Positions 18,865 to 61,779 of a stretch of DNA of 64,000 nt are shown here, in pieces. The DNA is from an uncultured Bacilli bacterium (lineage in GTDB: Bacteria > Bacillota_I > Bacilli_A > RF39 > UBA660): NCBI GenBank assembly GCA_934098515.1, contig CAKOOK010000002.1, positions 18,371 through 82,370 of the forward strand, given 5' to 3'. The notes below the pieces were generated by a model that saw nothing but the letters and a program-made list of their open reading frames with translations, was not told the origin of the DNA and searched no databases. The translations under genes were made by a program, and so were the position numbers. The stretch's first letter is position 1. Every line of letters starts with the position of its first letter.

Positions 18865-19500
18865 CTAAGAAAGTTCTTTAATATTCATACCATATATATT
18901 TTCTGGATTAGTATAAGTTCCATTATGTTCTACTTCAAATAAAAGCATATTACTATAAGTACTATCAATCTTATTTTCACCACTAGTCCCAATAACATCG
19001 CCTTTTTTTAAAGTATCGCCAACCATAACATTAACTTCATTTAAACTTTCATATCTTGTAATTAAGTTATTTGTATGTTTAATAGTTACTACGTTACCTA
19101 ATACTTCATCAGCTACTACATCTTCAACAGTACCATCAGCAACAACTAAAACTTCAAACTCTTCTTTAGCTCCATAAAGCACTCCTGTATTTGGCATATA
19201 AGTATTTTGATAATAAATTATAGATTGCTCTTGTGCCTTACTTTCAGCATCCTTCTCATAAAATCCTTTTACAACAGACACTTCTTCACCACCAAATGGC
19301 TTAATCACCTTTCCATCATCCGTGCTTACTACTGGAACTGTATCATCTATTAAATTTCGGTAAACATAAGACAAGTTATCATTACTATAAACTGAAGCTT
19401 TCAAAACCTTAGCAGTCAAATACAAACTTGAAATAATTGCTCCTACACTTAACAAATAAATACATACTACTACTGAACTTTTTAACTTATATCTTTTCAT
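18865..19500 (-). CDS. M23/LytM-domain membrane-anchored protein (peptidase or degenerate SpoIIQ-like)
   Basis: 211 aa. N-terminal TM helix. C-terminal LytM-like ..VGDTLKKGDVIGTSG.. motif. Adjacent to spoIID. Confidence 0.55.
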   Translation of the reverse strand: MKRYKLKSSVVVCIYLLSVGAIISSLYLTAKVLKASVYSNDNLSYVYRNLIDDTVPVVSTDDGKVIKPFGGEEVSVVKGFYEKDAESKAQEQSIIYYQNTYMPNTGVLYGAKEEFEVLVVADGTVEDVVADEVLGNVVTIKHTNNLITRYESLNEVNVMVGDTLKKGDVIGTSGENKIDSTYSNMLLFEVEHNGTYTNPENIYGMNIKELS

Positions 19501-19546
19501 CTCGCACCTTCCTAATAAAAGTGTGAGTAAAAAAATCTATTTTATA

Positions 19547-20425
19547 CTAAAAATCTTTAATAATTATATCTTTATAATAATACTTAAGTATTTCCTTATA
19601 ACTATAACCATCTTTAGCAAGCAAATTAGCTCCGTTTTGACTCATACCAACACCATGTCCATACCCCTTAGTAGTAATGTTTACTTCATCCCCATTTATT
19701 TTTATCTCAAAATCAGTAGATCTTAAATTAAGTAATTTTCTTACCTCTACTCCTTTAAAACATTTATCTTTAACACACATCTGACTAACATGATTAGTAT
19801 CATTTCTCTTAATATCAAACCCATCAAGTGAACTTACTCCTAACTTACTTAATATATCACTAAGTTTATAATTCTTACTAACCTCATAATTATTTAAATT
19901 AACCTCTAAAAGTGATGGTACACTTTCTATATCATTAGTTCCAAAAACCTCTACAGAATTTTCTGTATATCCATTACTCATTGCAAAATAAAATGTCTTC
20001 ATAATACTATCATTCTTATAAATTACCTCATTACCTGTCTCATTTACTGCATTTATTACTTTTTCATAATACTTATTAAAGTCATCACCCCATCTTTTTT
20101 TTAATTCATAAATATCCAAATAAGCCTGAGCATTCAAATTTGTACTATATAAATTATCACTATCTTTAGAACTTAATAAATAACTTCTTGCAGCAACCGA
20201 CTGTGCTTTTAAAGCCTCATCATTAAATAAAGCCGGCATTTCTGCCGCAACTACTCCAAACACATAATCATTAACATCTAAATATAAATTTCTATCTTGC
20301 AAATTTACAATTTTTGTATTTTTAGAAGTATTTTCATCAATAAAAAAAGTAGCTTTTCTTTTAAACCAAAAACTACATATACTGCATGGAATCAAAAACG
20401 TAATAACAAGTAAAAGTTTTTTCAT
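19547..20425 (-). CDS. spoIID: Stage II sporulation protein D (SpoIID/LytB family lytic transglycosylase)
   Basis: 292 aa. Signal peptide. ..EALKAQSVAARSY.. SpoIID motif. Confidence 0.7.
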   Translation of the reverse strand: MKKLLLVITFLIPCSICSFWFKRKATFFIDENTSKNTKIVNLQDRNLYLDVNDYVFGVVAAEMPALFNDEALKAQSVAARSYLLSSKDSDNLYSTNLNAQAYLDIYELKKRWGDDFNKYYEKVINAVNETGNEVIYKNDSIMKTFYFAMSNGYTENSVEVFGTNDIESVPSLLEVNLNNYEVSKNYKLSDILSKLGVSSLDGFDIKRNDTNHVSQMCVKDKCFKGVEVRKLLNLRSTDFEIKINGDEVNITTKGYGHGVGMSQNGANLLAKDGYSYKEILKYYYKDIIIKDF

Positions 20426-21129: not shown

Positions 21130-21357
21130 TTAGTCCAAATTGTATTTTTTATTAAATTTATCTACTGCACCAGTCTTCTTATGCTTTCCTTGAGCACCAG
21201 TATAGAATGGATGACAAGCATTACAAGTATCAACTGTAAATGACTCTGCCTTTAATGTAGAAACTGCTTCAAATTCATTACCACAAACACATTTAAAAGT
21301 TACCTTTTTAGTTTCTGGATGTAATCCCTTTTTCATATTCGCATCTCCTTCCGCCAT
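21130..21357 (-). CDS. rpmE: 50S ribosomal protein L31 (probable true start at 21336, MKKGLHPE)
   Basis: MKKGLHPE..CxC..CNACHPFYTG signature. Confidence 0.8.
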   Translation of the reverse strand: MAEGDANMKKGLHPETKKVTFKCVCGNEFEAVSTLKAESFTVDTCNACHPFYTGAQGKHKKTGAVDKFNKKYNLD

Positions 21358-21424
21358 GACTTTTACTAAGCCATAGAAATTCGTTTCTTATGTATTATAT
21401 CATATTTTTTCAAATATTCAACAA

Positions 21425-23300: not shown

Positions 23301-23825
23301 TTATCTAAATTTTTCAATTATGCTCTTTACAAAAAATTTATATTCAACATCGCTTGTCGTTTCATTTTCTTCCATAAGACAAAGTGGAGGAAATAGAACA
23401 CACCACCAGTTATCACCTTCTCCATCACCCAAAGTAACAACTAATGAATTATAATACCCGCCATCATACACTATACCTTTATAAGTTTTACTTGGAAAAT
23501 AATTCATTCCATAACTAACAGTAAAATTATCACTCATTAAATTCTGCTTTATTAACCCATTTATATTATCAACTTCACTTGACACAATTTTTTCTGCTTC
23601 ACCAACCGTACTAGCACTCACCACTTTATCATATAAATAATCTTCTAATTTTCTCTTTAAATTTAACTTAGTTTTAATATCACCAGGAGCATTGCTATTA
23701 CTAACTACTCTAAATCTAATTGATGAACTAGGAATAACAACTGATTCATTCTTACTTTTATTAAGTACGCCCACCGAAATAACAGCAGCTGTTATTATTA
23801 ACAATTTCTTCATAAAAAAAATCAC
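23301..23825 (-). CDS. spoIIR: Stage II sporulation protein R (SpoIIR)
   Basis: 174 aa. Signal peptide. Conserved DNWWCVLFPPLC motif. Confidence 0.7.
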   Translation of the reverse strand: MIFFMKKLLIITAAVISVGVLNKSKNESVVIPSSSIRFRVVSNSNAPGDIKTKLNLKRKLEDYLYDKVVSASTVGEAEKIVSSEVDNINGLIKQNLMSDNFTVSYGMNYFPSKTYKGIVYDGGYYNSLVVTLGDGEGDNWWCVLFPPLCLMEENETTSDVEYKFFVKSIIEKFR

Positions 23826-26611: not shown

Positions 26612-28525
26612 ATGAAAAAACTAAAATTTATATATAAATTAACTATCTTTTTGATGATAACATTTACAGTAATTATCTCTTGTCTTTACACATACGCCTA
26701 CTTCAGTCCCAAAATAACCCTAAACTCTGCAAATGCATTATCTCTATATGATAATGAAAACAATCTAATTCTGCAAACAAGTAACAACAAAAAATGGGCT
26801 AATATAAATGAAATATCTAATGACTTAATAAACGCAACAATTTCTGTTGAAGATAAAAACTTTTACCATCACTTTGGCTTTGACTATTTAAGAATCATAA
26901 AATCACTATATTTAAACGCTAAAACTAAATCTATAACAGCTGGAGCATCAACTATCTCTCAACAGTACGTTAAAAACTTATTTTTAGACTTCGATCAAAC
27001 CTGGAAAAGAAAAATTAAAGAAGCTATGCTAACTCTAAATCTAGAAGTTCACTACTCAAAAAAAGAAATACTAGAAGGCTATCTTAATACAATAAATTAT
27101 GGTCAAGGAAACTTTGGTATCGAAAATGCTAGTAACTATTACTTTAATAAAAAAAGTAGTGAACTTACCCTAGAAGAGGCAATTATCCTCGCCGGTATAC
27201 CTAAAAGTCCAGAAAACTATAACCCAGTAAGTAACTATGACGCCTCCATTAAAAGAGCAAAAATCGTTGCTAAAGCAATGTACAAAAATAAAAAAATTGA
27301 TGAAGAAACTTACAAAAATCTATTTTCTAAAAAAATTAATATTTACGGTCAAAGAAAAACAAATAACATGCAAACCTTAATGTATTATTATGATGCTGTC
27401 TTAAATGAACTAAATAGTATTCCAAATATTCCCAAAGACTTAATTAAATCAAAAGGTCTAAAAGTATATACAAACCTCGATATAAATGCTCAGCAAAAAC
27501 TAGATAATACTTTTAAAGAAAATGAAAATAAAGATAACATTGAACTTGCAGCAATAATGGCTGAACCATCTACTGGAAAAATATTCGCTCTTGCTGGTGG
27601 TCTAAACTACTCTAAAAGTCAGTTTAATCGTGCAATCTTTGCTAAAAGACAAGTCGGTTCAACTATTAAACCATTTCTCTACTACGCAGCATTAAACAAT
27701 AACATGACCGAAGCAAGTACATTTAAAAGTGAAGAAACAAGTTTCGTCTTTGCAGAAAATAAAAAATATACACCCAAAAACTACAGTAACATCTACGCAG
27801 ATAAAAACATTACTATGGCAGCCGCTCTAGCCTATTCAGACAATATTTATGCCGTAAAAACCCATTTATTCATCGGAACAGAAGAATTAGTAAACACTTT
27901 AAAAGAAGCTGGCCTAAAAAAAGAAATAGATGCATTCCCAGCCTTAGCTCTTGGTGCAGTTGAACTAAACTTATTAGATTACGTCGAAACATATAACACC
28001 CTAGCAAACTATGGCACATATAAAGACTTATACTTCATCGAAAAAGTCGAAGACTATGAAGGTAACCTTATATATAAGCATAAAAATGAAACAAAAGACG
28101 TACTAAACAAAGATAACGTATTCATTATAAACGAAATGCTTACAAACACGTATAATGCCTCTTTTATTGACTACCAATCACCAACAATAATTTCACTAAA
28201 TAGTAGACTAACTAAAAAATACGCCATCAAAAGTGGTACAACAGATAACGACTATCTAGTTATTGGCTATAACCCTGACGTTTTAATGTTCGTATGGGCA
28301 GGCTCTGATTACAATGGAACAGTACCTAAAGCATATTCATCTAAAATAAAAAATATTTGGTGCGATAACGTCGAAGAATATCTTAAAGATAAAGAATCAA
28401 TATGGTATACTCCTAGTGATAATATAATTGCAGTTCCTCTAGACCCAATAAGCGGTAAAGCAGCAGAATCTAACAAAAACATTCTATATTATTTCAAACG
28501 TGGTACAGAACCAATAACTAACTAA
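26612..28525 (+). CDS. Class A penicillin-binding protein (glycosyltransferase + transpeptidase)
   Basis: 637 aa. N-terminal TM. GT51 motifs (SVEDKNFYHHFG). TP motifs STIKP, YSDN, KSGTT. Confidence 0.8.
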   Translation: MKKLKFIYKLTIFLMITFTVIISCLYTYAYFSPKITLNSANALSLYDNENNLILQTSNNKKWANINEISNDLINATISVEDKNFYHHFGFDYLRIIKSLYLNAKTKSITAGASTISQQYVKNLFLDFDQTWKRKIKEAMLTLNLEVHYSKKEILEGYLNTINYGQGNFGIENASNYYFNKKSSELTLEEAIILAGIPKSPENYNPVSNYDASIKRAKIVAKAMYKNKKIDEETYKNLFSKKINIYGQRKTNNMQTLMYYYDAVLNELNSIPNIPKDLIKSKGLKVYTNLDINAQQKLDNTFKENENKDNIELAAIMAEPSTGKIFALAGGLNYSKSQFNRAIFAKRQVGSTIKPFLYYAALNNNMTEASTFKSEETSFVFAENKKYTPKNYSNIYADKNITMAAALAYSDNIYAVKTHLFIGTEELVNTLKEAGLKKEIDAFPALALGAVELNLLDYVETYNTLANYGTYKDLYFIEKVEDYEGNLIYKHKNETKDVLNKDNVFIINEMLTNTYNASFIDYQSPTIISLNSRLTKKYAIKSGTTDNDYLVIGYNPDVLMFVWAGSDYNGTVPKAYSSKIKNIWCDNVEEYLKDKESIWYTPSDNIIAVPLDPISGKAAESNKNILYYFKRGTEPITN

Positions 28526-28535
28526 AAAAGCAAGC

Positions 28536-29774
28536 CTACTCAGCTTGTTTTTCTATCTTTATAATCATCTGATACAAATCTTCAAAATCAAAATCTTCAC
28601 TAGAAACATTATATCCTGCTTCCTTTAATTCGTTAACAAAATCATTATAAGCCTCTTTAACAGAATCTAAATTATTTTCTAAAATTCTCTTCTTTGGAGG
28701 TTCTACCGGTTTTTCTTCTTCTTTTTTAACTTCTTCAAGTGGAACATCAAGACTTTCTAATGGTACATCTTTACTAATAGTACTACTACTATTAAATGGA
28801 TTAAACTCTTCCAATCTATCCATAGGCTCCATATTCATATTAGTAACTTCATCCTCTAAAGATGGATACTCTGGAGTATTATTACTAAAATTAAATAAAT
28901 TAAATCCTGGACTTGGTTGTGTTTTTTCTTTTTTAACATCTGATTCATTTATAGGATCTTCTGCCATTAAATCAAGAGTTTCCGTTTTCTCTTCTTTTGC
29001 TGGTTCAGAATTAAATATATTATCAGAATTATCAAATATATTGGTAGATTCATCAACTTTAGGAGCATTATCTAACACGCTTAAATTTTCAACTGGAGTA
29101 CTAACATCACCTAAATCTTCATAAGCAGGTGCCTCACTTATAACTGGTTCACTTACTAAATTACTTTCCTTCTTTATCTCATCATCTAACTGTCTAACAG
29201 TAAGTCTTTCAGAAATAACCTTATTTAATAAAGCCTTCTGCTTCTCAGGATCAGTTACACTAAGTAAACTTCTCGCATGTCTTTCACTAATTTTATCATT
29301 CATGAGTGCATCTTGCGCTTCACTAGTTAAATTCAATAATCTTAACTTATTTGCAATCGTTGACTGTGAAACTCCAATTTTCTTAGCAAGTTCATCTTGC
29401 GTTAAACCTTCCTTATCAAGAATCTTCTTATAACTCTTAGCTTCCTCTAGTGAATTTAAATTTCTTCTTTGAACATTTTCAACTAAAGCAATTTCAGCAC
29501 TCTTATTATCATCAATATTAGAAATTATTGCTGGAACTTCAGTTAACCCAGCAAGTTGTGCAGCCTTATAACGTCTTTCACCTGCAATTATCTCATATTT
29601 ATCCCCAAGTCTTCTTAATACAAGTGGCTGAATAATACCATGCTCTTTAATTGATGAAGCAAGCTCATTTAAAGACTTCTCATCAAAAGTAAGTCTAGGC
29701 TGAAACCTATTTGGAATAATATAATCTATATTAACATTTTGTATTAACGGCTCTCTATTCATAAAACAACCCAT
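28536..29774 (-). CDS. ParB/Spo0J/Noc-family protein with about 200-aa acidic low-complexity C-terminal extension; no adjacent parA
   Basis: ParB N-domain (..IIPNRFQPR.., IQPLVLRR..YEIIAGERRYKAA), HTH (LTQDELAKKIGVSQSTIANKLRLL). Sits next to rsmG as noc does in Bacillus. Confidence 0.75.
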   Translation of the reverse strand: MGCFMNREPLIQNVNIDYIIPNRFQPRLTFDEKSLNELASSIKEHGIIQPLVLRRLGDKYEIIAGERRYKAAQLAGLTEVPAIISNIDDNKSAEIALVENVQRRNLNSLEEAKSYKKILDKEGLTQDELAKKIGVSQSTIANKLRLLNLTSEAQDALMNDKISERHARSLLSVTDPEKQKALLNKVISERLTVRQLDDEIKKESNLVSEPVISEAPAYEDLGDVSTPVENLSVLDNAPKVDESTNIFDNSDNIFNSEPAKEEKTETLDLMAEDPINESDVKKEKTQPSPGFNLFNFSNNTPEYPSLEDEVTNMNMEPMDRLEEFNPFNSSSTISKDVPLESLDVPLEEVKKEEEKPVEPPKKRILENNLDSVKEAYNDFVNELKEAGYNVSSEDFDFEDLYQMIIKIEKQAE

Positions 29775-29792
29775 CCTATTCTAAATATAATA

Positions 29793-30509
29793 TTACTTTA
29801 TTTTTCTAATTTTTGCAATAGGAGATTTACGTATTTTATCATAAACTCTAGGATAACCATTCGGTGTATCACTAACCTTTTCAACTTTAACTAGTGTTCT
29901 TTCACCAGCATCATTAAGTAAAGAAAATTCCTCTTTCTCACTAATTTTTCCGCCTAAGAACTCGATAGCATAATTAGCACTATCAATTTCCTCTGTATTT
30001 TTACCCTTCATAGCAATAAAATAACCACCAACTTTACAAAAAGGAATTGCAAGTTCACTAAGAATACTCATATCAGCAACTGCCCTCGAAACAACAACAT
30101 CAAATCTTTCACCAGATAAATAATACTTTTCTGCTCTATCATTAATAACCGTAGCATCTATTCCTAACTTACCTAAAACATACTTTAAAAAAGTAGTTTT
30201 TTTATTATTACTATCTAAAAGCGTCAACTTAATATCAGGAAACATAATTTTCAAAACAATTCCCGGAAATCCAGCACCAGTACCAATATCAAGTACACTT
30301 TCATTACTAAAACTATAAACCTTATAAATAGTCAAACTATCATAAAAATGCTTTAAATAAACTTCATCAATATTACGAATAGCCGTCAAATTAGTATGTT
30401 CATTATAAGAAAGAAGTTCACTAGCATACACCCTAAATTTATTTATCTGCTCATCACTAATACTTAAACCTAAATTTTCTAAAGAACTTATAAACTCACT
30501 TTCACTCAT
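29793..30509 (-). CDS. rsmG: 16S rRNA (guanine527-N7)-methyltransferase RsmG (GidB)
   Basis: 238 aa. SAM motif DIGTGAGFPG. Conserved position after mnmG. Confidence 0.85.
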   Translation of the reverse strand: MSESEFISSLENLGLSISDEQINKFRVYASELLSYNEHTNLTAIRNIDEVYLKHFYDSLTIYKVYSFSNESVLDIGTGAGFPGIVLKIMFPDIKLTLLDSNNKKTTFLKYVLGKLGIDATVINDRAEKYYLSGERFDVVVSRAVADMSILSELAIPFCKVGGYFIAMKGKNTEEIDSANYAIEFLGGKISEKEEFSLLNDAGERTLVKVEKVSDTPNGYPRVYDKIRKSPIAKIRKIK

Positions 30510-35817: not shown

Positions 35818-35829
35818 AAAAAATTGCAC

Positions 35830-36203
35830 CTCCACATCAAATTTAGCGTTTTTATTATATTATATTAAAGGCTGCAAGTCAATAAAAAGTTAACCTTCAA
35901 TTTATTAAAAAAATATCAAATAAAAAAATCTAACAAAAAATATAATTTTTAAATTTATAAAAAAGCAAAATTAGTAAATCCTAAATTATCAAAAAGTGGA
36001 AAATGTTTATATCTTTTTTTATTGTTAATTGTAATTTGTGGATATTGTTGAAAACTCACTCTAGACTATATAAATAAAAGGTTTGCATGTTGATAAAATG
36101 TTGAAAAAATTGTCGAATTTAATTTTTTTCATTTTCTCTCTTTATTTTTCCACAGACTTGATTTAAAATAGAACTATCAAAAACGAAGGACCGGGGTGAG
36201 GTA
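35830..36203. promoter_or_regulatory. oriC (rpmH-dnaA part): AT-rich unwinding region with DnaA-box-like 9-mers
   Basis: TGTGGATAT (about 36039), TTTTCCACA (36147-36155), AGTGGAAAA (about 35994). Further box-like TGTGGAGAA in the dnaA-dnaN spacer (about 37606). Confidence 0.6.
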
Positions 36204-37556
36204 ATGAAACATAATGTAAATTGGAATGATATTCTAGAAGTAATACAAAGCAAACTAAATCCATTATCTTATGATACCTGGTTCAAAGAAACTAAACTAA
36301 TTGGCATTAAAAACAATACCATACAAATAGAAGTTCCAATGGAATTTCATAAAAAAATTCTTAATCAAACATATTATGATTTAATCGAAGAAATAGTAAG
36401 TACAGTAACCGGAACATCTTATGACATTGAATTCTTATCATCAGAAGAAATAAAACCTCTTGAAATCCTTGAATTAGATAAAGTAGAAGAGCCAGAAAAT
36501 GAGAATTTAAATTCAAACCTTAAACCAGAATACACATTCGAAAATTTTGTAATAGGGGATAGTAATAGATTTGCTCAACTAGCAGCACTAGCCGTAGCAG
36601 AACAACCAGGAAAAATCTATAACCCATTATTTATATACGGTAAAAGTGGCCTAGGAAAAACCCACTTAATGCATGCAATCGGTAACTATATAGTACAAAA
36701 ATCAAATAAAAAAGTTCTATACGTTACAAGTGAAGAATTCATATCAGACTTCATTGGAATTAATAAAAAAGACGAAAACAACTACGATATAGTAAGTCAA
36801 TTTAAAGAAAAATATCGAAACATAGATATCTTAATGATAGATGACATCCAGTTCCTTGGTGGAGCAGCTAAAACTCAGCAAGAATTCTTCCATACATTTA
36901 CAAATCTCTATGACTCAAATAAACAAATTATTATTAGTTCAGACCGTTCCCCAGACGACTTAAAACTTCTTGAAGAGAGGTTACTAACAAGATTTAGATG
37001 GGGGCTAACAGCTAACATCGAACCACCAGATTTTGAACTTAGATGTAAAATTCTTAAAGATAAAATGACTGGACACGAAGTTGCTAAAATGGTTCCAAAT
37101 GAAGTAATAGAGTACATTGCAACAAACTGTGAAAACGATGTTAGACACTTAGAAGGTGCTATAACAAGACTATATGCTTATGCAGCAATGATGGGCCCTA
37201 AAGAAATTAACCTTGAATTTGCCGTAGATGCCCTTAAAGATTACATTGGTAAATCAATATATATAACCAACGACATTCAAAAAATTCAAAAAGCCGTCGC
37301 TGATTACTATCACATAACAATTGAAGATTTAAAAAGTAAAAAAAGAACATCAAACATCAATTATCCAAGACAAATTGCTATGTATCTGTGCCGAATGACA
37401 ACATCTGAAACAATCATAAAAATAGGACTAGAATTTGGTAATCGTGATCATTCGACAGTTTTACACTCATATGATAAAATAAATAATGAAATTCAAAATG
37501 ATGAAAACAACATAAGACAAGTAATAGAGGATATAAAAAACAAAATTGTTAATTAA
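36204..37556 (+). CDS. dnaA: Chromosomal replication initiator DnaA
   Basis: 450 aa. AAA+ GKSGLGKTHL. C-terminal DNA-binding domain. Confidence 0.95.
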   Translation: MKHNVNWNDILEVIQSKLNPLSYDTWFKETKLIGIKNNTIQIEVPMEFHKKILNQTYYDLIEEIVSTVTGTSYDIEFLSSEEIKPLEILELDKVEEPENENLNSNLKPEYTFENFVIGDSNRFAQLAALAVAEQPGKIYNPLFIYGKSGLGKTHLMHAIGNYIVQKSNKKVLYVTSEEFISDFIGINKKDENNYDIVSQFKEKYRNIDILMIDDIQFLGGAAKTQQEFFHTFTNLYDSNKQIIISSDRSPDDLKLLEERLLTRFRWGLTANIEPPDFELRCKILKDKMTGHEVAKMVPNEVIEYIATNCENDVRHLEGAITRLYAYAAMMGPKEINLEFAVDALKDYIGKSIYITNDIQKIQKAVADYYHITIEDLKSKKRTSNINYPRQIAMYLCRMTTSETIIKIGLEFGNRDHSTVLHSYDKINNEIQNDENNIRQVIEDIKNKIVN

Positions 37557-38816: not shown

Positions 38817-38824
38817 GTGCATAA

Positions 38825-38851
38825 TTCGACATTTTTCGACAAATTTCGACA
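38825..38851. promoter_or_regulatory. Three direct TTCGACA repeats (= Spo0A-box TGTCGAA on the opposite strand) at exactly 10-bp phasing
   Basis: TTCGACA at 38825, 38835, 38845. Located 40-70 bp upstream of the comK-like start. Confidence 0.5.
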
Positions 38852-38891
38852 AACCACCTGTGCTATAACTAAAAGCAAGGGGGTGAAGTAC

Positions 38892-39335
38892 ATGAAAGAT
38901 TACAATATTAATAAAAACACACTTGCACTAATGCCATATGGTAAAAACAAATCATTAGTTTTTGAAAAACACAAATATTATATAGTTAACCAAAAAGTAA
39001 ATAAACTAATGGATGAAAGTTGTCGTTATAACGGAAGCACCATTGAAGGAAGAGCTAAAGGAACAGAATCGTTAACAGGAATTTCTTATAAAGCTCCAAT
39101 TATTGTTAAAGAAGAAGAGAATATTATATTTTTTCCAACGTGCTCACCAAGGCTAAAAGAATGTTCTTGGATTAATGCAGGTAATATCAGTAATATCTAT
39201 AAGAAAAAAGACCGATGTTTAGTTGAATTTTATAACAAAGAAACTTTAGAATTTGATATATCTTATAACATTATGAATAATCAATTAAGCAAATCACTAT
39301 TATTAGAAAAAAAGTTTAAAAAAAGAGGCAAATAA
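38892..39335 (+). CDS. ComK-like competence transcription factor homologue
   Basis: Aligns with B. subtilis ComK core (..DESCRYNGSTIEGRAKGTE..KAPIIV....IFFPTCSPRLKECSWIN..). Strong SD AAGGGGGTG. Confidence 0.55.
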   Translation: MKDYNINKNTLALMPYGKNKSLVFEKHKYYIVNQKVNKLMDESCRYNGSTIEGRAKGTESLTGISYKAPIIVKEEENIIFFPTCSPRLKECSWINAGNISNIYKKKDRCLVEFYNKETLEFDISYNIMNNQLSKSLLLEKKFKKRGK

Positions 39336-42460: not shown

Positions 42461-44914
42461 ATGGATCATAGTAGAGACAGATTAGAAGAAAATAACATAG
42501 TAAATGAAGTAAAAACATCCTTCTTAGAATACTCAATGAGCGTCATAGTATCACGTGCGCTTCCAGACTTAAGAGATGGTTTAAAACCAGTTCATAGAAG
42601 AATTCTTTACTCAATGTACGAATCAGGTTACACTCCAGATAAACCGCATAAAAAGAGTGCAAGAATTGTCGGAGACGTAATGGGAAAATACCATCCACAT
42701 GGAGACTCAAGTATATATGAAGCAATGGTAAGAATGGCCCAAGATTTCAGCTACAGATACATGCTAGTTGATGGACACGGAAACTTTGGTAATATCGAAG
42801 GATATGGCGCAGCAGCAATGCGTTACACCGAATCAAGACTCTCAAAAATATCCCTAGAATTATTAAGAGATATCAAAAAAGATACAGTTAATTTTACACC
42901 GAACTTCGATGAAAGTGAAAAAGAACCAACAGTTTTACCATCAAGATTCCCAAATATCCTAGTAAATGGAACAATGGGTATCGCAGTAGGTATGGCCACA
43001 AATATTCCACCTCATAACTTAGGTGAAGTAATCGACGGCTGTATAGCATATATAGATAACCCAGACATCGACGTTCTAGGTCTAATGAATCATATTAAAG
43101 GCCCAGACTTTCCTACAGGAGGCATAATACTAGGTAATAGTGGAATCAAACAGGCATATGAAACAGGAAAAGGCACTATAACAATTAGAAGTAAAGCCCA
43201 AATTGAAGAAAAAAATGGCAAACATTACATAATTATTGATGAAGTTCCATATGGAGTTAATACCTCAGAACTTAAAAATAAAGTCGCCGAATTAGTTCAT
43301 AATAAGACAATTGAAGGCATTGCAGACTATCATACAGACCTAAAAGAAGGTATTAAAATAACAATAACTCTAAAAAAAGATGCTAATGCCCAAGTTGTTC
43401 TAAATAAACTATTTAAGCATACACAATTTCAAACAAATTACGGAATAAGCTTCTTAATGTTGGATAATGGCGTGCCAAAAACCCTTGGACTAAAAGAAAT
43501 AATTGAAAAATATATTAATTATCAAAAAGAAATAATCGTAAGAAGAACCAAATTTGACTTAGATAAGGCCGAAAAACAAGTACATATCTTAGAAGGCTTA
43601 AAGATTGCATTAGACAACATAGATGCTGTAATAAAGACTATTAAAGAATCAAAAAGCGATGATGTAGCAAAAGAAGCCTTAATGAAACGCTTTGGCTTAA
43701 CATTAATTCAATCAGAAGCAATTTTAGAGATGAAACTACGTAGATTAACAGGCTTAGAAAGAGACAAAATAGAAGCAGATCTTAACGAATTACATAAATT
43801 AATAGCTGAATTAAAATCAATTTTAGAAAGCGAAGCAAAAGTGCTACAAATTATTAAAGATGAGTTAATCGAAATCAAGAATAAATATGGTGATGAAAGA
43901 AAGACATCTATTGATATGACTGCTATAGACTATATTGAGGATGAGTCACTAATTCCTGAAGAAAACATCATAGTTACAGTAACAAAGAACGGTTATATTA
44001 AGAGATGTACGTCTGACACTTATAAAATTCAAAATCGTGGTGGCGTAGGTGTAAAGGGAATGTCAACCAATGACGAAGATTTTGTGGAATACTTACTAAA
44101 TCTATCAACTCATGACTATATACTGATATTTACCAATAAAGGTAAAGTATATAGATTAAAAGGATATGAAATACCTGAATTTAGTAGACAATCAAAAGGA
44201 TTACCAATAATTAACGTATTACCTGTGGAAAAAGATGAGAAAATAAGTAGTATAATAAAATTAAATGTGGAAAACCAAGAAAAATACTTAATTCTAGCTA
44301 CAAAACAAGGCTTAATCAAACGTACAAACCTAGAAGAATTTGAAAATATTAGAACAACCGGAAAAATTTGTATAAAACTAAAAGAAAACGACGAACTAAT
44401 AGGTGTTAAAAAAACAAATGGTGAATCCAATATCCTATTAGCATCTTCTGAAGGTAGAATGAATGTCTTTGATGAAAATGAAATCAGAGTTATGGGAAGA
44501 ACAGCTTCCGGTGTTAAAGGTATCAATCTAGGAAGTGCTGAATGTGTAAGCATAGAAAATGTAAAAGACGATGATAATATAGTAATAGTAACCGAAAATG
44601 GTTATGGTAAAAAAACATTAATTTCTGAATACAGAAAGACAAAACGAGGAAGCAAAGGTGTAAAAGCTCTAAATATTACTGAAAAGAATGGAAATATAGC
44701 AAGTATTAAAAAGGTTATTGATGATTCAGACATCATGATTATTACAAATCAAGGAATAATCATTAGATTACCATTAGAACAAGTATCACAATTAGGTAGA
44801 GTTACCCAAGGTACAAGACTGATTAATCTAAAATCAGGACAAAAAGTATCATCTGTAAGTATTGTTCAGAAAGAGAAAGAACAAGAAGAAGAAATTTTTG
44901 AAAAAAACGAATAG
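42461..44914 (+). CDS. gyrA: DNA gyrase subunit A
   Basis: 817 aa. Catalytic-Tyr region [24 protein letters not shown]-terminal beta-pinwheel repeats. Confidence 0.95.
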
Positions 44915-44936
44915 TTTAACTATTCGTTTTTTTATG
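44907..44936 (+). terminator. Intrinsic terminator of gyrA
   Basis: ACGAATAGTTtaaCTATTCGT + T7, overlapping the gyrA stop. Confidence 0.6.
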
Positions 44937-45277
44937 TTTCACGTGAAACATAAAAAGTAAAGAGATAGCACTTATGAACAATGTTTCACGTGAAACTTTT
45001 TAATCGAAGCCTTTAAAACTATATATAAAATAGTAAATATAATTAAATATTTTAAAGATATCAACATTCAGATGTTTCACGTGAAACATCTGAATGTTCA
45101 CTTTAAATAGAATTAACAGTCATCAACATAATTATGAAAAACTGAATTTTAGATTAAAAGATATAAACATAGTTTCACGTGAAACCTTTAAAACATTGCG
45201 TAATTAATCCAATAACAACAATAATAAAAAAATCAACAATTAATATTTATCAACAATGTTTCACGTGAAACATTGTT
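44934..45277. repeat. Five dispersed copies of palindrome GTTTCACGTGAAAC (extended to 18, 26 and 36 bp in three copies)
   Basis: Cores at 44936, 44983, 45075, 45172, 45259. 36-bp perfect palindrome at 45063-45098, 26-bp at 45252-45277. Confidence 0.85.
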
Positions 45278-45326
45278 TAATAACAATATAAGTTGCATCA
45301 AAGATATAAGTATGATAACATTTAAT

Positions 45327-45406
45327 TGTGCAATATTTATGCAATAAACTGGTCAGATTCGGAAGAAAGCAGCCACATTTGCCTCTAAATATGTGCACTT
45401 TTTTTA
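45327..45406 (+). ncRNA. ffs: Small SRP RNA (ffs/scr), short 4.5S-like form; boundaries approximate
   Basis: GGTCAGATTCGGAAGAAAGCAGCCA matches the universal domain IV motif. Closing helix GTGCAATATTTA/TAAATATGTGCAC, then T7. Confidence 0.55.
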
Positions 45407-45416
45407 AGGAAAAATT

Positions 45417-45866: not shown

Positions 45867-47525
45867 ATGGCATATAAAGTACTTTACAGAAAATATAGAC
45901 CACAAAACTTTAATGATTTATATGGTCAAGATTCAATAAAAGAAATACTTAAAGATTCTATAATAAACAATAAATTAGCACATGCTTACTGCTTTAACGG
46001 CCCAAGAGGAACCGGAAAAACCTCAACAGCAAAACTATTTGCAAAAGCAATTAACTGTGAAAATGCTAAAGATGGAATTGCATGTGGTGAATGCAACTCA
46101 TGTAAAAATTTTAATGAGAACCCAGATATAATTGAAATAGATGCTGCATCAAATAATGGTGTAGAAGAAATAAGAGAACTTCGCGATAACGTAAAAATTC
46201 TTCCTTCAAATTCAAAATATAAAATATATATAATTGATGAAGTACACATGCTATCACAAAGTGCGTGGAACGCCTTTCTAAAAACTTTAGAAGAACCACC
46301 AAAGCATGTCATATTCATTTTAGCAACTACTGAAATTCAAAAGGTTCCAATAACTGTTTTATCTAGATGTCAAAGATTTACCTTTAGAAAAATACCTAAA
46401 AATATAATATGCGAAAGAATCTTATCAATTGCTAAAGAAGAAAATATTGAAATTGACGAATCAGCTGCCGAATATATTGCAGACCTAGCAGACGGTGGAA
46501 TGAGAGATGCTTTAGGATACTTAGACCAATTATCAAAAGAAAATAAAAAAATAACAACCGAGATTATTCAAAACTGTTTTGGTGTCATAGGCGATTCAAC
46601 AATAGAAGAAATATTTTTAACAGCAAAAGAGGAAAATCTAGAAAATTTGCAAAATATATTTAATGACATATCTAATCAGGGACTTGAAGTGAATTTATTA
46701 ATTTCAAAAATATTAAATTATCTATATAATGAAGAGATAAAAATACTTCAAAACAAAGTTTCAGTATTTAATAATCTACAAACGATTAAAGAACTAGCTT
46801 TTGAAATATCGAACTGTTACTTAAAAAAAGATGCTCTTACTTTAATAAAAATAGTTATATTAAGTAAAATAAAAACTCAAAATGGAATAGAAACAATTAA
46901 AAATACAGATAAAATTATTTCCCGGGAAATAATTTCTAAAGAAATAAACAACAAAATGTCTCCTAAAACAAATACTATTATAGAAATTCAAAGTAATAAA
47001 GCACAATCAAAAGAAATTACAAAGCCTTCAAAGACGGTAGTAATAACTTCACGTAGTGATGAAGAAATAAATAGATTAAAAATAATAAGAATAAATAATG
47101 TATTTATAACTGCCAGTAAAATTAATAAAGAGACTTTTAATACAAACTGGGATGATTTAAAAAAAGATATTAAATATAAAAATAGCGATTTATATTCAAA
47201 AATTGAAGATGCAGAAGTAGAAATAGTTTCAGACGATATTGCAGTATTATCACTAAATACAGAAACTGCAGTATATTTATTTAATTCAAATCTTGAAACT
47301 ATTGAAGAAGAATATAATATGAAATTTAATAAAAAATATAAAATAATTTGCCTACTAAAGCAAGAATGTACTAACGCAAAAAAAGAATATATCAAAAATA
47401 AAAGTAAAAAATATATTTATATGGAAGAAAACTTAGCAGAACCAGCATCAAAAGAAAACACTACTGAAGAAAATAACAATAGTGCACTTGAAATATTTGG
47501 CAAAGATTTAATAGAAATAAAATAG
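45867..47525 (+). CDS. dnaX: DNA polymerase III subunits gamma/tau
   Basis: GPRGTGKTS Walker A, zinc module CGECNSC, SRC motif. Confidence 0.9.
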   Translation: MAYKVLYRKYRPQNFNDLYGQDSIKEILKDSIINNKLAHAYCFNGPRGTGKTSTAKLFAKAINCENAKDGIACGECNSCKNFNENPDIIEIDAASNNGVEEIRELRDNVKILPSNSKYKIYIIDEVHMLSQSAWNAFLKTLEEPPKHVIFILATTEIQKVPITVLSRCQRFTFRKIPKNIICERILSIAKEENIEIDESAAEYIADLADGGMRDALGYLDQLSKENKKITTEIIQNCFGVIGDSTIEEIFLTAKEENLENLQNIFNDISNQGLEVNLLISKILNYLYNEEIKILQNKVSVFNNLQTIKELAFEISNCYLKKDALTLIKIVILSKIKTQNGIETIKNTDKIISREIISKEINNKMSPKTNTIIEIQSNKAQSKEITKPSKTVVITSRSDEEINRLKIIRINNVFITASKINKETFNTNWDDLKKDIKYKNSDLYSKIEDAEVEIVSDDIAVLSLNTETAVYLFNSNLETIEEEYNMKFNKKYKIICLLKQECTNAKKEYIKNKSKKYIYMEENLAEPASKENTTEENNNSALEIFGKDLIEIK

Positions 47526-49393: not shown

Positions 49394-50161
49394 ATGAAAG
49401 TATGTGGAGTAATATTTAAAGAAAACAGTAAAGTATATAATTTTGATCCAAAAGATTTACCAATCGAAAAAGGAAAATATGTTATAGTAATTACTGAAAG
49501 AGGAGAGCAAATTGGTAAAATCGCAACAATAGACGATAAAGATGTCAAAAACACATTAAAAGAAGTTGTAAGAATGGCTACAGATAAAGATTATAATCAA
49601 TACTTAATTAACTTAAGAGACGCTCAAGAAGCTTTAAAAGACGCTAAGGCCGAAGCAACACATTTAAATTTAAAAATGCAATTAGTGGACTCAGAATTTA
49701 CATTTGATAGAAAGCAACTTTTTATAAACTTTGTTGCAGACGAAAGAGTAGATTTTAGAGAACTAGTTAAGTTTCTTGCTGGAAAATATAAAACTAGAAT
49801 TGAACTACATCAAATGGGAGCAAGGGATAAAGCTAAAAAAATTGGTGGAATAGGAATCTGTGGAAGAAAATTATGCTGTGCTAAATACCTAAATAAAATG
49901 GATACTATTTCTATAAACATGGCAAAAAATCAAAATATAGCATTAACACCATCAAAAATAAATGGATGCTGTGGAAGATTACTATGTTGTTTAGCATATG
50001 AAGATGAAACTTACAAAGAAAACAAGGAAAAATTGCCTAAAATAGGTAGTAAGATTAAAATAGATGATAAAATCGGTACAGTTTTATCCATAAATGTTCT
50101 AAGCAAAAAATATAAAGTTTCTTTTGACGACGAAGTAAAGGAATACAAAATTGATGAATAA
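49394..50161 (+). CDS. ricT: PSP1-domain protein YaaT/RicT
   Basis: 255 aa. Cys-rich cluster GICGRKLCC..CCGRLLCC. Follows holB as in Bacillus. Confidence 0.7.
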   Translation: MKVCGVIFKENSKVYNFDPKDLPIEKGKYVIVITERGEQIGKIATIDDKDVKNTLKEVVRMATDKDYNQYLINLRDAQEALKDAKAEATHLNLKMQLVDSEFTFDRKQLFINFVADERVDFRELVKFLAGKYKTRIELHQMGARDKAKKIGGIGICGRKLCCAKYLNKMDTISINMAKNQNIALTPSKINGCCGRLLCCLAYEDETYKENKEKLPKIGSKIKIDDKIGTVLSINVLSKKYKVSFDDEVKEYKIDE

Positions 50162-50837
50162 AAATACAACAGTTCTAAACGATTTATATGATACAGGATT
50201 TAAAATTTATCAAAATGATGAATATTTTAAATTTTCTTTAGATTCATTGCTTCTAGCAAAATTTGTAAATCCAGATTATAAAGATAAAAAAATCCTAGAC
50301 CTTTGCACTGGTAATGCTCCAATTCCTATAATTTTATCATCAAATAAGAATTTTGAAATAACTGGAATTGAAATACAAAAAGAAATTTATCATTTAGCAG
50401 TTGAATCTATAAAAATTAATAATATAAAAAATGTGAATATTATAAACGATGACCTAAAAAAGCTTAAAAATTATTTCCCGGGAAATAATTTTGATATAAT
50501 TACCTGCAATCCACCATACTTTAAAGTGGAAAAAGAGTCATTATTAAACAAAAATGAAATTAAATCAATAGCAAGACATGAAATACATATAACGTTAGAA
50601 GAAATTATAAAAATCTCACATAGTATGCTAAAAGACAAAGGTAAACTATATATAATTCATAGAACAGATAGAATGATTGAATTAATAAACCTTCTAACAA
50701 AATATAAATTTGGTATTAAAAGAATGCAAATTATATATCCAAACGAACATAGTAATGGTTCTATGATAATTTTTGAAGCTAAAAAAGATTGCAAACATGA
50801 TGTCAAAATATTGTCACCTATATTTACAAACATATAG
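50151..50837 (+). CDS. SAM-dependent methyltransferase, YabB/TrmN6-like
   Basis: LDLCTGN and CNPPYF motifs. Confidence 0.65.
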   Translation: MMNKNTTVLNDLYDTGFKIYQNDEYFKFSLDSLLLAKFVNPDYKDKKILDLCTGNAPIPIILSSNKNFEITGIEIQKEIYHLAVESIKINNIKNVNIINDDLKKLKNYFPGNNFDIITCNPPYFKVEKESLLNKNEIKSIARHEIHITLEEIIKISHSMLKDKGKLYIIHRTDRMIELINLLTKYKFGIKRMQIIYPNEHSNGSMIIFEAKKDCKHDVKILSPIFTNI

Positions 50838-55214: not shown

Positions 55215-55430
55215 GATTAACATTATTAAACAAAGAAGGAAAGAGTAATAATTAAAAACTAACAGAGAATTCTTGGTTGGTGAAAAAGAATTAGATTTTT
55301 AATTATGAACATGGCTCCAGAGTTTAAACGTTAATCGCGTTAAAGATATAAGAGCATGATAAAATCATGAATTAAGGTGGTACCGCGGAAAACTTCGTCC
55401 TTAATTTGTGATTTTTTATTTGTTTAAAAA
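55215..55430 (+). promoter_or_regulatory. T-box riboswitch leader of metG (probable Met specifier)
   Basis: Conserved T-box AATTAAGGTGGTACCGCGG at 55370-55388. Downstream hairpin + T-tract. AUG in a candidate specifier loop (..UUAUGAAC..). Confidence 0.75.
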
Positions 55431-55448: not shown

Positions 55449-56990
55449 ATGGAAAAATATTATATTTCAACAGCAATTGCCTACACATCTGCAAAGCCAC
55501 ATTTAGGAAATACTTATGAAATCGTTTTAGCAGATGCTATTGCCCGTTTCAAAAGACTACAAGGCTATGACGTATATTTTCAGACTGGCACAGACGAACA
55601 TGGTGAAAAAATTGAAGGAAAAGCTTTAGAAGCAAACGAGACACCACAAGAATATGTAGACAACATTGCCGCTCAAATAAAAGACATTTGGGATGTAGTA
55701 AACACAAGCTATGACAAATTTGTAAGAACAACAAATAAAGAGCATGAAGAAATTGTTCAAAAAATATTCAAAAAATTTTATGATAATGGAGACATTTACA
55801 AAGGAGAATACAAAGGACTTTACTGCACACCATGTGAATCATTCTGGACATCTTCACAACTAGTTGATGGCAAGTGCCCAGATTGTGGTAGAGAGGTATA
55901 CGAGAAAAACGAAGAAGCTTACTTCTTTAAAATGAGTAAATACTCAAAATGGCTTGAAGATTATATAAATGAGCACCCAGATTTTATTATGCCAGAAGCA
56001 AGAAAAAATGAAATCATTAATAACTTTATTAAGCCAGGACTTCAAGACCTATGTGTATCAAGGACAAGCTTTAAATGGGGAATTCCAGTAACATTTGATG
56101 AGAATCACGTTATCTACGTATGGATCGATGCTTTATCTAATTACATAACATTCCTAGGATATAATCCAGACGGAGAATCAAGTGAGAACTTCAAAAAATA
56201 CTGGCCTGCAAATGTGCATTTAATAGGAAAAGATATTTTAAGATTTCACACAATTTACTGGCCAATTATGCTTCACTGTCTAGGATTAGAAATGCCAAAA
56301 CATATCTTCGGACACCCATGGCTACTATTTGCATCAGACAAAATGAGTAAAAGTAAAGGCAATATCGTATATGCCGACGATTTAGTAGAAAAATATGGAG
56401 TAGATGCTGTAAGATACTATTTACTTCACGAAATACCTTTTGCAAGTGATGGTAACTTCACAATCGAACTACTAGAAAATTCAATAAATAGTGACTTAGC
56501 AAACGTTCTAGGGAACCTCGTTAACCGAACAATTGGCATGATCAACAAATACTTTGACGGAGAAGTTGAAAACACACATATCACGGAAGATATAGATGAC
56601 GACTTAAAAAGTACAATCGCAAACAGCATTACAGCTATCACCAATAAAATGGACGAATTCAAAATAGCGGACGCATTAGATGAACTATTTAATATTTTTA
56701 GAAGATGCAATAAATATATTGACGAAACAACTCCTTGGATTTTAGCAAAAGATCCTGAAAAACAGGCAAGATTAAAGACTGTTCTATACAATCTAATCGA
56801 AAGCATTAGAATAGGTGCTGTACTATTACAAGCATTTTTACCAGAAACAGCAGCATCAATTTTCAAACAAATTAATACAGACAAAACTACAATTGACTCA
56901 ATCAAAACATTTGGAAAGTACGATAGTAAAAAAGTTGGTACACCAGTAGTATTATTTCAAAGGATTGAAAATGATAAAACTAACAGATAG
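55449..56990 (+). CDS. metG: Methionyl-tRNA synthetase (short form)
   Basis: HLGN (HIGH-class), KMSKS, zinc knuckle CTPCESF..CPDCG. Confidence 0.9.
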   Translation: MEKYYISTAIAYTSAKPHLGNTYEIVLADAIARFKRLQGYDVYFQTGTDEHGEKIEGKALEANETPQEYVDNIAAQIKDIWDVVNTSYDKFVRTTNKEHEEIVQKIFKKFYDNGDIYKGEYKGLYCTPCESFWTSSQLVDGKCPDCGREVYEKNEEAYFFKMSKYSKWLEDYINEHPDFIMPEARKNEIINNFIKPGLQDLCVSRTSFKWGIPVTFDENHVIYVWIDALSNYITFLGYNPDGESSENFKKYWPANVHLIGKDILRFHTIYWPIMLHCLGLEMPKHIFGHPWLLFASDKMSKSKGNIVYADDLVEKYGVDAVRYYLLHEIPFASDGNFTIELLENSINSDLANVLGNLVNRTIGMINKYFDGEVENTHITEDIDDDLKSTIANSITAITNKMDEFKIADALDELFNIFRRCNKYIDETTPWILAKDPEKQARLKTVLYNLIESIRIGAVLLQAFLPETAASIFKQINTDKTTIDSIKTFGKYDSKKVGTPVVLFQRIENDKTNR

Positions 56991-60522: not shown

Positions 60523-60804
60523 ATGGATAAAATAATAGACGTACCTGCATTAAACCACATAATTAAACTTACAGATCGCAAAAACATTATTATAAGTGGT
60601 ATAAAAAAAATAAACAGCTTTGATGAAAAAGAATTTGACCTAGACAGTATAATGGGAAATATTATAATTAAAGGCTCAAATTTAGAAATGATAAAACTAG
60701 ATACAATTGAAGGAAACGTATCAATAAAAGGTCAGATTAACAGCTTCACTTACAGTGATACAAATGATAAAGAATCTTCTATTTTAGCCAAACTATTTAA
60801 ATGA
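60523..60804 (+). CDS. yabP: Sporulation protein YabP
   Basis: 93 aa. Conserved yabP-yabQ-divIC arrangement. YabP-like beta-rich sequence. Confidence 0.55.
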   Translation: MDKIIDVPALNHIIKLTDRKNIIISGIKKINSFDEKEFDLDSIMGNIIIKGSNLEMIKLDTIEGNVSIKGQINSFTYSDTNDKESSILAKLFK

Positions 60805-61046
60805 AACAACTAATACCAATCATATACACAATAATCTATTCATTAGTATTCAGCTTAATATTACATAGTATCAAAAAACATAAACCACTTTTCTCTAGCA
60901 TAACATTAATACTCTCAACAACATATATAATCCTTTTATATCATATTAATAATGGTAATTTTCCACTTTTACTTCAATTAATCTTCTTAATAAACATAAT
61001 TCTTTGTCCAAATTATGTAAAATTTATAAAAAAACATAAAAAATAA
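60801..61046 (+). CDS. YabQ-like small membrane protein
   Basis: 81 aa, 3 TM. Start overlaps the yabP stop. Confidence 0.4.
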   Translation: MKQLIPIIYTIIYSLVFSLILHSIKKHKPLFSSITLILSTTYIILLYHINNGNFPLLLQLIFLINIILCPNYVKFIKKHKK

Positions 61047-61102
61047 ACTTCTAATAATTCAAAAAAATCAAAATAATGCTAAAATAAAAATAGGAGACTA
61101 AG

Positions 61103-61387
61103 ATGGCAAAGAAAAAGACAAAAAGAAGATTACTAGTTTATTCATTATTTATCTTGGCGGCTATATCATATATTGCTGTTTTTGGCATTGATCAATGGGG
61201 CAAAATATTAAACAACCGTAAAGAAACAAAAGAATTAGAACAAAAATATAAGTCTCTATTAGAAAAAGAAGAAGAACTAAATTCTGAAGTTACTAAACTT
61301 CAAGATGACGAATACGTAGCTAAATATGCTAGAGAAAAATATATGTACTCTAAAGATGGAGAATATATTATAAAAATAGCGGACTAA
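61103..61387 (+). CDS. divIC: Septum formation initiator DivIC/FtsB
   Basis: 94 aa. N-terminal TM, coiled coil. C-terminal ..EKYAREKYMY.. DivIC/FtsL signature. Confidence 0.6.
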   Translation: MAKKKTKRRLLVYSLFILAAISYIAVFGIDQWGKILNNRKETKELEQKYKSLLEKEEELNSEVTKLQDDEYVAKYAREKYMYSKDGEYIIKIAD

Positions 61388-61427: not shown

Positions 61428-61779
61428 GGGGTCGTATGGTTTCGACAGAATATATATTTATATATTTGCAAGTGGTATGCTATGCCTAAAATAGCAACAC
61501 AGTTAAAATAACTGACAAAACTAATTATAATACTGCTTTAGCATTTGCCTAGTTGCAATTAAAGCGCTACCTATCAATCTTATTTCTGCGGAGACAATAG
61601 GTGGTTCATATTAGCAGAATATACTTTAGTATTTCTTCAATACTAGAAAGAATCCCTAGAAGATATTCAATATAACTTTGTTAGTTTGCAGATATTGAAA
61701 AATTAATAAACTGACTAAACTTGTAGAAGGTATATAAATAGTATTTTGGACAGTGGTTCAAATCCGCTCGGCTCCACCA
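61428..61779 (+). ncRNA. ssrA: tmRNA (ssrA); candidate tag reading frame ..(A)DKTNYNTALAFA*
   Basis: 5' GGGGTCGTATGGTTTCGACAG (tRNA-like acceptor/D region). 3' GGACAGTGGTTCAAATCCGCTCGGCTCCACCA (T-arm + CCA). Internal ORF ending GCT TTA GCA TTT GCC TAG. Confidence 0.85.

Follow-up and report, generated by a model that had tools for sequence, protein, structure and literature searches.

An origin-proximal array of parS-type sites downstream of gyrA, a probable chromosomal centromere in an uncultured group of gut Bacilli

Background

What is the function of five near-identical palindromes packed into a short spacer close to a replication origin, and which protein would read them? The question is raised by a stretch of 64,000 nucleotides of contig CAKOOK010000002.1 (GenBank assembly GCA_934098515.1), from an uncultured Bacilli bacterium of the RF39 lineage (UBA660), in which the palindromes lie between gyrA and ffs (encoding the small RNA of the signal recognition particle, SRP). 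The whole 64-kb stretch is referred to as the window and all coordinates are window positions. A first-pass annotation had taken the palindromes for parS sites, which would serve as a loading platform for ParB, and had connected them to an open reading frame (ORF) for a ParB/Noc-like protein at 28536-29774. Judged by its sequence, the array belongs to the known class of chromosomal parS, in a compact form that is conserved throughout the clade, and we consider it likely that it is a chromosomal centromere read by a canonical ParB (of the R173/G201 type) that is encoded outside the window.

Results

Five parS-type sites in the gyrA-ffs spacer

The whole window was searched on both strands with TGTTTCACGTGAAACA, allowing at most two mismatches, and compared to 100 shuffles. 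Exactly five matches were found, at 44935 (no mismatch), 44982 (one), 45073 (none), 45171 (two) and 45257 (none), and none in the rest of the 64 kb. The shuffles gave an expectation of 0.01 matches and at least five matches were reached in 0 of 100, so that the five parS-type palindromes within about 350 bp that had been reported by the first-pass annotation are borne out. The sites are:

44935-44950, parS-1: TGTTTCACGTGAAACA, 16/16; centre of a 28-bp perfect palindrome (44929-44956)
44982-44997, parS-2: TGTTTCACGTGAAACT, 15/16; core intact
45073-45088, parS-3: 16/16; centre of a 36-bp perfect palindrome (45063-45098)
45171-45186, parS-4: AGTTTCACGTGAAACC, 14/16; both changes outermost, 14-bp core intact
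45257-45272, parS-5: 16/16; centre of a 26-bp perfect palindrome (45252-45277)

The match quality thus amounts to 16/16 for three sites, 15/16 for one and 14/16 for one. Since the two mismatches of parS-4 concern the outermost bases, the 14-bp core GTTTCACGTGAAAC is intact in 5/5 sites; the same variant (AGTTTCACGTGAAACC) is also present in a close relative (L001). The array extends over 338 bp (44935-45272) of the 407 bp that separate gyrA from ffs, or about one site per 70-85 bp. A tandem-repeat origin, which holds for some relatives only (see below), was rejected for the window array because Tandem Repeats Finder (TRF) found no repeat unit in it; the spacers between the sites are mutually unrelated.

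Chromosomal setting

The array is contained entirely in the spacer between gyrA and ffs, close to the presumed origin:

44915-45321: gyrA-ffs spacer, non-coding (no ORF of at least 80 aa), containing the entire array
42461-44914, + strand: gyrA, left boundary of the array (Pfam DNA_topoisoIV and six DNA_gyraseA_C repeats)
44901-44933: hairpin over the gyrA stop codon (inverted repeat followed by a T-run)
45322-45407, + strand: small SRP RNA gene (ffs), right boundary (Rfam RF00169, 55.5 bits)
35819-36203 (left coordinate approximate): rpmH-dnaA spacer, presumed oriC, at which the GC skew flips

The gene order to the left of the array is rnpA (- strand), dnaA (+ strand, from 36204), dnaN, a comK-like gene, recF, gyrB and gyrA, and to the right of ffs we found tadA (45417, NCBIfam TadA), dnaX (45867), yaaK and recR. 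The sign of the GC skew changes at about 36 kb, coinciding with the start of dnaA at 36204, which places the array at 8.7-9.1 kb clockwise of the origin, in line with the earlier estimate of about 9 kb. The hairpin at 44901-44933 is likely the gyrA terminator, as far as its sequence indicates. The comK-like gene (38817-39335, + strand; Pfam PF06338, E 3e-40) lies between dnaN and recF, within the origin cluster.

Conservation across relatives

With GyrA as handle, 75 related loci (+-10 kb) were fetched from species-representative genomes, all of them metagenome-assembled genomes (MAGs) of uncultured low-GC gut 'Bacilli/Tenericutes'; the GyrA of the closest relatives (UMGS1021 and two others) is 98-99% identical. 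In addition, 80 loci centred on the Noc-like gene (956 kb) and 16 loci centred on ParB were scanned. All clade DNA examined for parS counts is origin-proximal. Tetranucleotide signatures were dropped as a genus marker, as all within-clade correlations were 0.97-0.99 and did not discriminate.

Nearly every locus that extends past gyrA carries 2-12 parS-type sites directly downstream of it, and none elsewhere in the +-10 kb. In numbers, 348 of the 349 parS cores fall in the gyrA-dnaX spacer (76 genomes; 89.7 kb of gyrA..dnaX) and a single one in the remaining 1.37 Mb of the gyrA loci. At least two sites are found within the gyrA-tadA gap in 53 of 62 complete loci, and most of the others have sites between tadA and dnaX. 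Copies spread over the chromosome arms and terminus, the distribution that the first-pass annotation had named as inconsistent with parS, find no support: within this origin-proximal DNA there is no copy in the remainder of the window, up to 10 kb past either window end in the same species, in the 956 kb of the 80 Noc-centred loci or in any of the 16 ParB-centred loci. Judged from these counts, the distribution is the one expected of a binding site under selection with a locus of its own, not of a dispersed repeat.

Across about 70 species we counted 220 copies of TGTTTCACGTGAAACA and 57 of TGTTCCACGTGGAACA. The consensus of the 344 distinct sites reads (C)AAT-GTTTCACGTGAAAC-ATT(G), with conservation absent beyond +-11 bp. 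In the closest relatives the identity falls from 92-94% in the gyrA DNA to about 75% in the spacer, which has many indels, and one site has been gained or lost, while the cores are retained. The alignments thus indicate purifying selection on the cores relative to their surroundings.

The architecture of the array varies: the spacers are irregular, as in the window, or the sites lie in tandem units, in some relatives with periods of about 53 bp or about 37 bp. For instance, the array of L043 is a tandem duplication (61 bp x 10.8) and that of L008 consists of about 53 bp x 11 in head-to-tail orientation with one binding site per unit; the largest spread is up to 12 copies over 1.7 kb. Array turnover, as read from these comparisons, is quick, with gain, loss and duplication of sites, and the 14-16 bp cores are kept by selection.

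Several MAG contigs that carry the clade gyrA and a parS array are labelled Vescimonas, Methanobacteriaceae, Muribaculaceae, Lachnospiraceae or Agathobacter (L007, L008, L012, L027, L041, L054, L062, L067 and L074). These odd taxon labels probably reflect mis-binned contamination.

Extended palindromes around parS

Three of the five window sites centre longer perfect palindromes (28, 36 and 26 bp, see the list above); the other two show no extension and no stable hairpin and still keep the core. Clade-wide, 32% of the 271 distinct sites extend perfectly for at least 4 bp past the 18-mer, versus 1.1% of control centres, with half-lengths of up to 21 and perfect palindromes of 26-42 bp. The outer arms show no sequence conservation in the clade-wide logo. 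Folded as a DNA hairpin, the parS-3 palindrome reaches -15.1 kcal/mol (z = -6.9). Its left arm (AACATTCAGA) resembles the left arms of L001 and L002, and its right arm (TCTGAATGTT) is the exact reverse complement of the left one, whereas the right arms of L001 and L002 differ at several positions. The differences in the right arm of parS-3 all restore complementarity, which fits a single hairpin-templated conversion. The long perfect palindromes are best explained, we infer, as a side effect of mutation around a perfect core that is itself under selection: intrastrand hairpin-templated copying at such a core would make the flanks symmetrical, and no requirement of ParB needs to be invoked.

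Two other roles for the palindromes and their flanks were considered and dropped. A role as intrinsic terminators was rejected because a terminator scan scored parS-3 alone and on the minus strand only; at parS-1 the T-run precedes the stem instead of trailing it. The left flanks of parS-3 and parS-5 (TATCAACA and TTATCAACA, respectively) are DnaA-box-like. However, the window shows no more than a weak enrichment of TTATCMACA (7 versus 2.7 expected, with 1 of 100 shuffles reaching 7), there is a single TTATCMACA match within the array and the clade logo shows no one-sided motif.

A Noc-type paralogue and its predicted binding sites

The ORF to which the array had been linked, and the sites of Noc type (Noc-binding sites, NBS) found in the window, are:

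28536-29774, - strand: Noc-type ParB paralogue, 412 aa (Pfam ParB_N and HTH_ParB)
46916-46931: perfect NBS (TATTTCCCGGGAAATA), inside dnaX
50472-50487: second perfect NBS (TATTTCCCGGGAAATA), inside a methyltransferase ORF (50151-50837)

The gene lies directly after rsmG (29793-30509), which is also the position of noc in Bacillus. The top NCBIfam match of the protein is nucleoid_noc (283.5 bits), although it misses the trusted cutoff of TIGR04285 (283.5 versus 315 bits; positions 2-195 of the 255 of the model matched). Among PDB entries its best matches are Noc structures (7NG0, 7NFU and 7OL9, E 1e-59 to 1e-53), and those to ParB/Spo0J are weaker (1e-48 to 1e-40). Four residues (at 173, 179, 184 and 201) set the specificity for parS or NBS, being R-T-A-G in ParB and Q-K-K-R in Noc, with R173 invariant in proteins that bind parS and a single lysine, at either 179 or 184, being sufficient (PMC7383237). 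A gap-free alignment to 7OL9 (B. subtilis Noc, with Q158, K164, K169 and R186 at these positions) gave Q137, K143, N148 and R165 for the window protein. QKNR was found in 120/120 retrieved orthologues and QK[NAST]R in 74 of 80 metagenomic orthologues.

The protein carries the GERRY box and has an acidic low-complexity linker of about 150 aa that leads up to a short conserved C-terminal domain (..AGYNVS..YQ.IIK). At the N-terminus only 16-20 residues precede PNRFQPR in 120/120 orthologues, versus about 37 in Noc, and the amphipathic membrane helix is, by sequence, not present in the window protein or its 120 orthologues. The ORF cannot be extended N-terminally, because the rsmG stop codon lies 18 nt upstream. 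The membrane activity of Noc requires helix a1 (10 aa), a2 and an 8-aa loop (PMC8429893). The protein is therefore best described as putatively Noc-type in DNA recognition, while lacking two attributes of Noc proper (the helix and a score above the TIGR04285 cutoff).

Noc-type residues predict that NBS are present in the genome. We indeed found two perfect 16-bp NBS in the window, versus 0.02 expected, at positions that are conserved in the closest relatives (L001-L004). The related loci contain 114 CCCGGG hexamers, 110 of which lie in perfect NBS cores, and the 462 sites fall into 349 pure parS, 110 pure NBS and 3 hybrids. The discreteness of these classes argues for two readers over one relaxed reader. 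The gene at 28536-29774 thus appears to belong to a separate Noc/NBS system and is not the predicted reader of the parS array. The link that had been drawn between the two is unsupported, given the Noc-type residues, the Noc relatives in the PDB, the presence of own NBS and the existence of another ParB with R-T-N-G in a sister sub-clade (see below).

Composite parS/NBS arrays

Of the 110 NBS in the gyrA loci, 70 fall within the gyrA-dnaX spacer. The post-gyrA arrays of several relatives contain repeated modules in which NBS alternates with parS at a constant offset, with start-to-start distances of 28 bp in L045 (12600-13750) and about 45 bp in L025 (12740-14140), and the pairing is also found in L059, L046 and L065. 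The NBS in such arrays sits in a longer palindrome, AATT-ATTTCCCGGGAAAT-AATT. We found nothing specific in the literature on post-gyrA parS arrays or on parS/NBS co-arrays, nor a description of the confinement of such sites to a single spacer, their high density, their palindromic embedding or their pairing with NBS.

Candidates for the cognate ParB

In a sister sub-clade, six Noc-centred loci also carry soj and a gene for a 292-aa ParB about 8 kb away. The layout there is noc, rsmG, mnmG, mnmE, jag, yidC, rnpA and rpmH in leftward orientation, adjoined by soj, parB, CSD, Rce1-like, DnaB_2, dnaI and dnaE in rightward orientation. This ParB reads GKSRSHITNTLGLLNL...ISMGHAR at the specificity positions, that is R-T-N-G, and RTNG was found in 120/120 homologues. 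Going by these residues, the sister-sub-clade genomes encode both a parS-type and an NBS-type paralogue.

The search for homologues of the Noc-like protein gave orthologues of at least 89% identity, and that with the clade ParB only proteins of at least 82% identity, of which the three inspected have the same rpmH/soj-parB layout. With Spo0J, Soj and the clade ParB as queries, tblastn found no parB in the window or the gyrA loci. Shared flanking genes that could link the sister-sub-clade genomes to specific gyrA loci were sought and gave no overlap. 'Bacilli bacterium' MAGs (L173-L177) contain another canonical Soj-ParB family (296 aa, R..G type), in an ancestral context (ftsH-soj-parB-mscS-DUF951-ychF-rpsF-ssb-rpsR-rplI-dnaB); there is no parS or NBS within 10 kb of these loci. 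In one contig that carries the same Noc-like protein (L164) an SMC gene is present in the part just left of the window.

When the origin regions of L135, L138-L147, L156-L158 and L165-L171 were compared with those of the window and L001-L075, three layouts were seen in the lineage: rpmH/dnaA, rpmH/soj-parB-CSD-...-dnaE (the sister sub-clade) and rsmG-noc-dnaA (L031). These differing layouts imply large rearrangements at the rpmH/dnaA junction.

Other features of the window

Several genes of sporulation type (SpoIID, M23 peptidase, SpoIIR, SpoVG, YabP and DivIC; at 18865-20425, 23301-23825 and 60523-61387) and a gene for a class A penicillin-binding protein (26612-28525) are present, in a lineage whose MAGs often carry the label 'Tenericutes'. 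The genes res (3325-5889) and mod (5879-7768) form a type III restriction-modification pair, and a gene for a Schlafen/AlbA_2 ATPase lies at 10361-11812. In one related locus (L163) the restriction-modification and Schlafen genes are kept but unrelated genes take the place of the neighbouring RecG/PFOR block, and in another (L161) a serine-recombinase island is found near the position of the right end of the window. Matches at Rfam gathering score were the transfer-messenger RNA (61428-61779), an L31-Firmicutes ribosomal leader (21345-21376) and a T-box leader (55224-55405) upstream of a tRNA-synthetase ORF (55449-56990).

Discussion

Comparison with known systems

The array shares with parS/Spo0J of B. 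subtilis the same 16-bp palindrome (tGTTNCACGTGAAACa), the proximity to the origin and a host among the Bacilli that has a Noc paralogue reading NBS (PMC7383237, PMC7022226). The number of parS sites in B. subtilis is 10, and multiple origin-proximal sites are the rule among bacteria (PMC7022226). The arrangement found here is different, as all sites found lie in one non-coding post-gyrA spacer, many of them are embedded in long perfect palindromes and soj-parB is absent from the noc neighbourhood. The parS sites of B. subtilis, most of them intragenic, are spread through the origin-proximal region, and parB adjoins noc.

Clusters of many consensus parS at a single origin-proximal locus, acting as ParB nucleation zone and as tip of the chromosome fold, are known from Myxococcus xanthus (22 parS in about 3 kb, 4 kb from parAB; PMC3899335) and Corynebacterium glutamicum (10 parS in 35 kb, 73 kb from oriC; PMC7083940). 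Those clusters span coding DNA, whereas the present array is smaller as well as more compact (5 sites in 338 bp), is confined to one gyrA-ffs spacer and does not lie near a parAB operon. The earlier qualification of the array as unusually dense holds in so far as it is at the dense end of the range, but the cluster of M. xanthus shows that dense clusters are not without precedent.

The protein encoded by ORF 28536-29774 is like Noc of B. subtilis in the position of its gene after rsmG, the ParB_N and HTH domains, the GERRY box, the Q..K..R residues and the occurrence of exact NBS (TATTTCCCGGGAAATA). It is unlike Noc in that the amphipathic helix is missing, that the long acidic linker is present and that it scores below the NCBIfam cutoff for Noc; moreover, relatives pack many NBS beside parS in the array, whereas NBS in B. 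subtilis are only scattered around the chromosome.

Plasmid centromeres can be made of tandem iterated repeats. The head-to-tail arrays of L043 and L008, with one binding site per unit, resemble these, but the site is that of chromosomal parS, the locus is chromosomal and linked to the origin, and the spacers in the window are unrelated. What appears distinctive here is the combination of detected sites confined to one non-coding post-gyrA spacer clade-wide, a high density, the palindromic embedding and the pairing with NBS in relatives.

A centromere and its possible readers

The parS sequence itself, the proximity to the origin and the dedicated, clade-wide locus support the reading of the array as a parS/ParB platform, and it is in our judgement probable that the five palindromes constitute a chromosomal centromere read by a canonical ParB that is encoded elsewhere. 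By analogy with known systems (PMC7022226, PMC7383237), ParB dimers would nucleate on each 16-bp site, bind cytidine triphosphate (CTP), close into a clamp and slide onto the flanking DNA. One dense partition complex would thus mark the origin region, be moved by Soj/ParA where present, and load SMC. Packed into 338 bp, the five sites would make up a zone of high-flux loading that also offers redundancy. A single parS usually suffices in other species (PMC7022226), and the multiplicity therefore probably gives robustness.

Several observations weigh against the assignment to a ParB encoded elsewhere. The tblastn searches found no R173-type ParB and no ParA/Soj in the window, and no ParB or Soj was found up to 10 kb beyond either window end in the same species (flanks of about 17 kb). 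A canonical ParB and a post-gyrA array were not found together on one genome: the ParBs tied to the clade are all in the rpmH/soj-parB layout, and the arrays are mostly in the rpmH/dnaA layout that the window also has. Neither is the 296-aa ParB family tied to the clade, as the accessions of its MAGs (CDRRMA01 and CAOMAY01) match no gyrA-locus MAG. As to the second ParB/ParA pair, a check for which had been proposed earlier, Soj and an RTNG ParB are present in the sister sub-clade, and none was found in the window or its flanks.

These observations could be accounted for if the Noc-type paralogue were the only ParB-family protein of the genome, reading both parS and NBS or having taken over the centromere; the earlier link between the array and this gene would then be correct. 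In line with this, there is no other ParB-family gene in the 64 kb and the flanks of about 17 kb, NBS and parS are interleaved at fixed offsets in relatives (with most of the NBS in the gyrA-dnaX spacer), the protein lacks the membrane helix and may thus not be a classical nucleoid-occlusion factor, and dual-specificity variants are known from deep mutational scans (PMC7383237). However, it has Q at the position equivalent to 173 and R at that equivalent to 201, whereas in the scan parS binders have the invariant R173 and dual binders mostly have T or S at 201 (PMC7383237). A relaxed reader would also tolerate hybrid sites, yet these make up only 3 of the 462, and an RTNG ParB is encoded separately in relatives whose Noc-like protein has the same QK(N/S/A/T)R residues. 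We therefore regard a sole, dual-reading Noc-type protein as improbable. It is even harder to see the sites as operators of an unrelated transcription factor that acts on ffs/tadA-dnaX or gyrA and of which the likeness to parS is coincidental. The intergenic region that contains the sites does bear a promoter and immediately precedes the SRP RNA gene, and CACGTG-centred palindromes are bound by other regulator families. But in about 70 species most sites agree with the universal parS over 16 bp, up to 12 copies over 1.7 kb or 11 in a tandem array of 53-61 bp far exceed the architecture of an operator, the array lies between tadA and dnaX instead in some species and no regulator gene adjoins it, which leaves such a role very unlikely. 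We attach equally little weight to structural or selfish DNA that has no centromere role, be it hairpin repeats of the REP (repetitive extragenic palindrome) or MITE (miniature inverted-repeat transposable element) kind or secondary structures associated with replication. The perfect palindromes of 26-36 bp at three sites, with their stable hairpins, and an extension far above chance throughout the clade would agree with it. Against it, the repeats are not dispersed but found at one locus only in about 2.4-2.5 Mb of clade DNA (with 1 core outside), conservation is limited to the 14-18 bp parS core with unconserved arms, two of the five window sites keep the core in the absence of extension or stable hairpin, and transposase or target-site features were not found.

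Besides the centromere read by a canonical ParB, the co-arrays of the relatives suggest, more tentatively, a composite element with two readers. Two CTP-dependent clamps, a canonical ParB and the Noc paralogue without membrane helix, would be loaded next to each other from the parS and NBS sites of the phased modules, and the Noc-like protein would be a second origin-organising or centromere protein and not a nucleoid-occlusion factor. In the genus of the window the NBS would have shifted to dnaX and the methyltransferase gene, 1.6-5.2 kb downstream of the array. In an extreme version, the sub-clade of the window would have lost ParB, with parS being read by the Noc-like protein or another factor. 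We consider this composite reading less likely than not.

Conclusions

The array provides a precisely mapped, probable centromere for an uncultured group of Bacilli that is highly prevalent in the human gut, and it could help to recognise the origin region in both metagenomic assemblies and meta-Hi-C data. The analysis also corrects a tempting mis-annotation, as the only ParB-like gene near the origin appears to encode a Noc-type paralogue with its own sites. Taken together, the confinement of the detected sites to one spacer, the phased parS/NBS modules, the missing membrane helix of the Noc paralogue and the embedding of parS cores in long palindromes bear on the question of how two paralogous clamps, ParB and Noc, can share the same piece of DNA.

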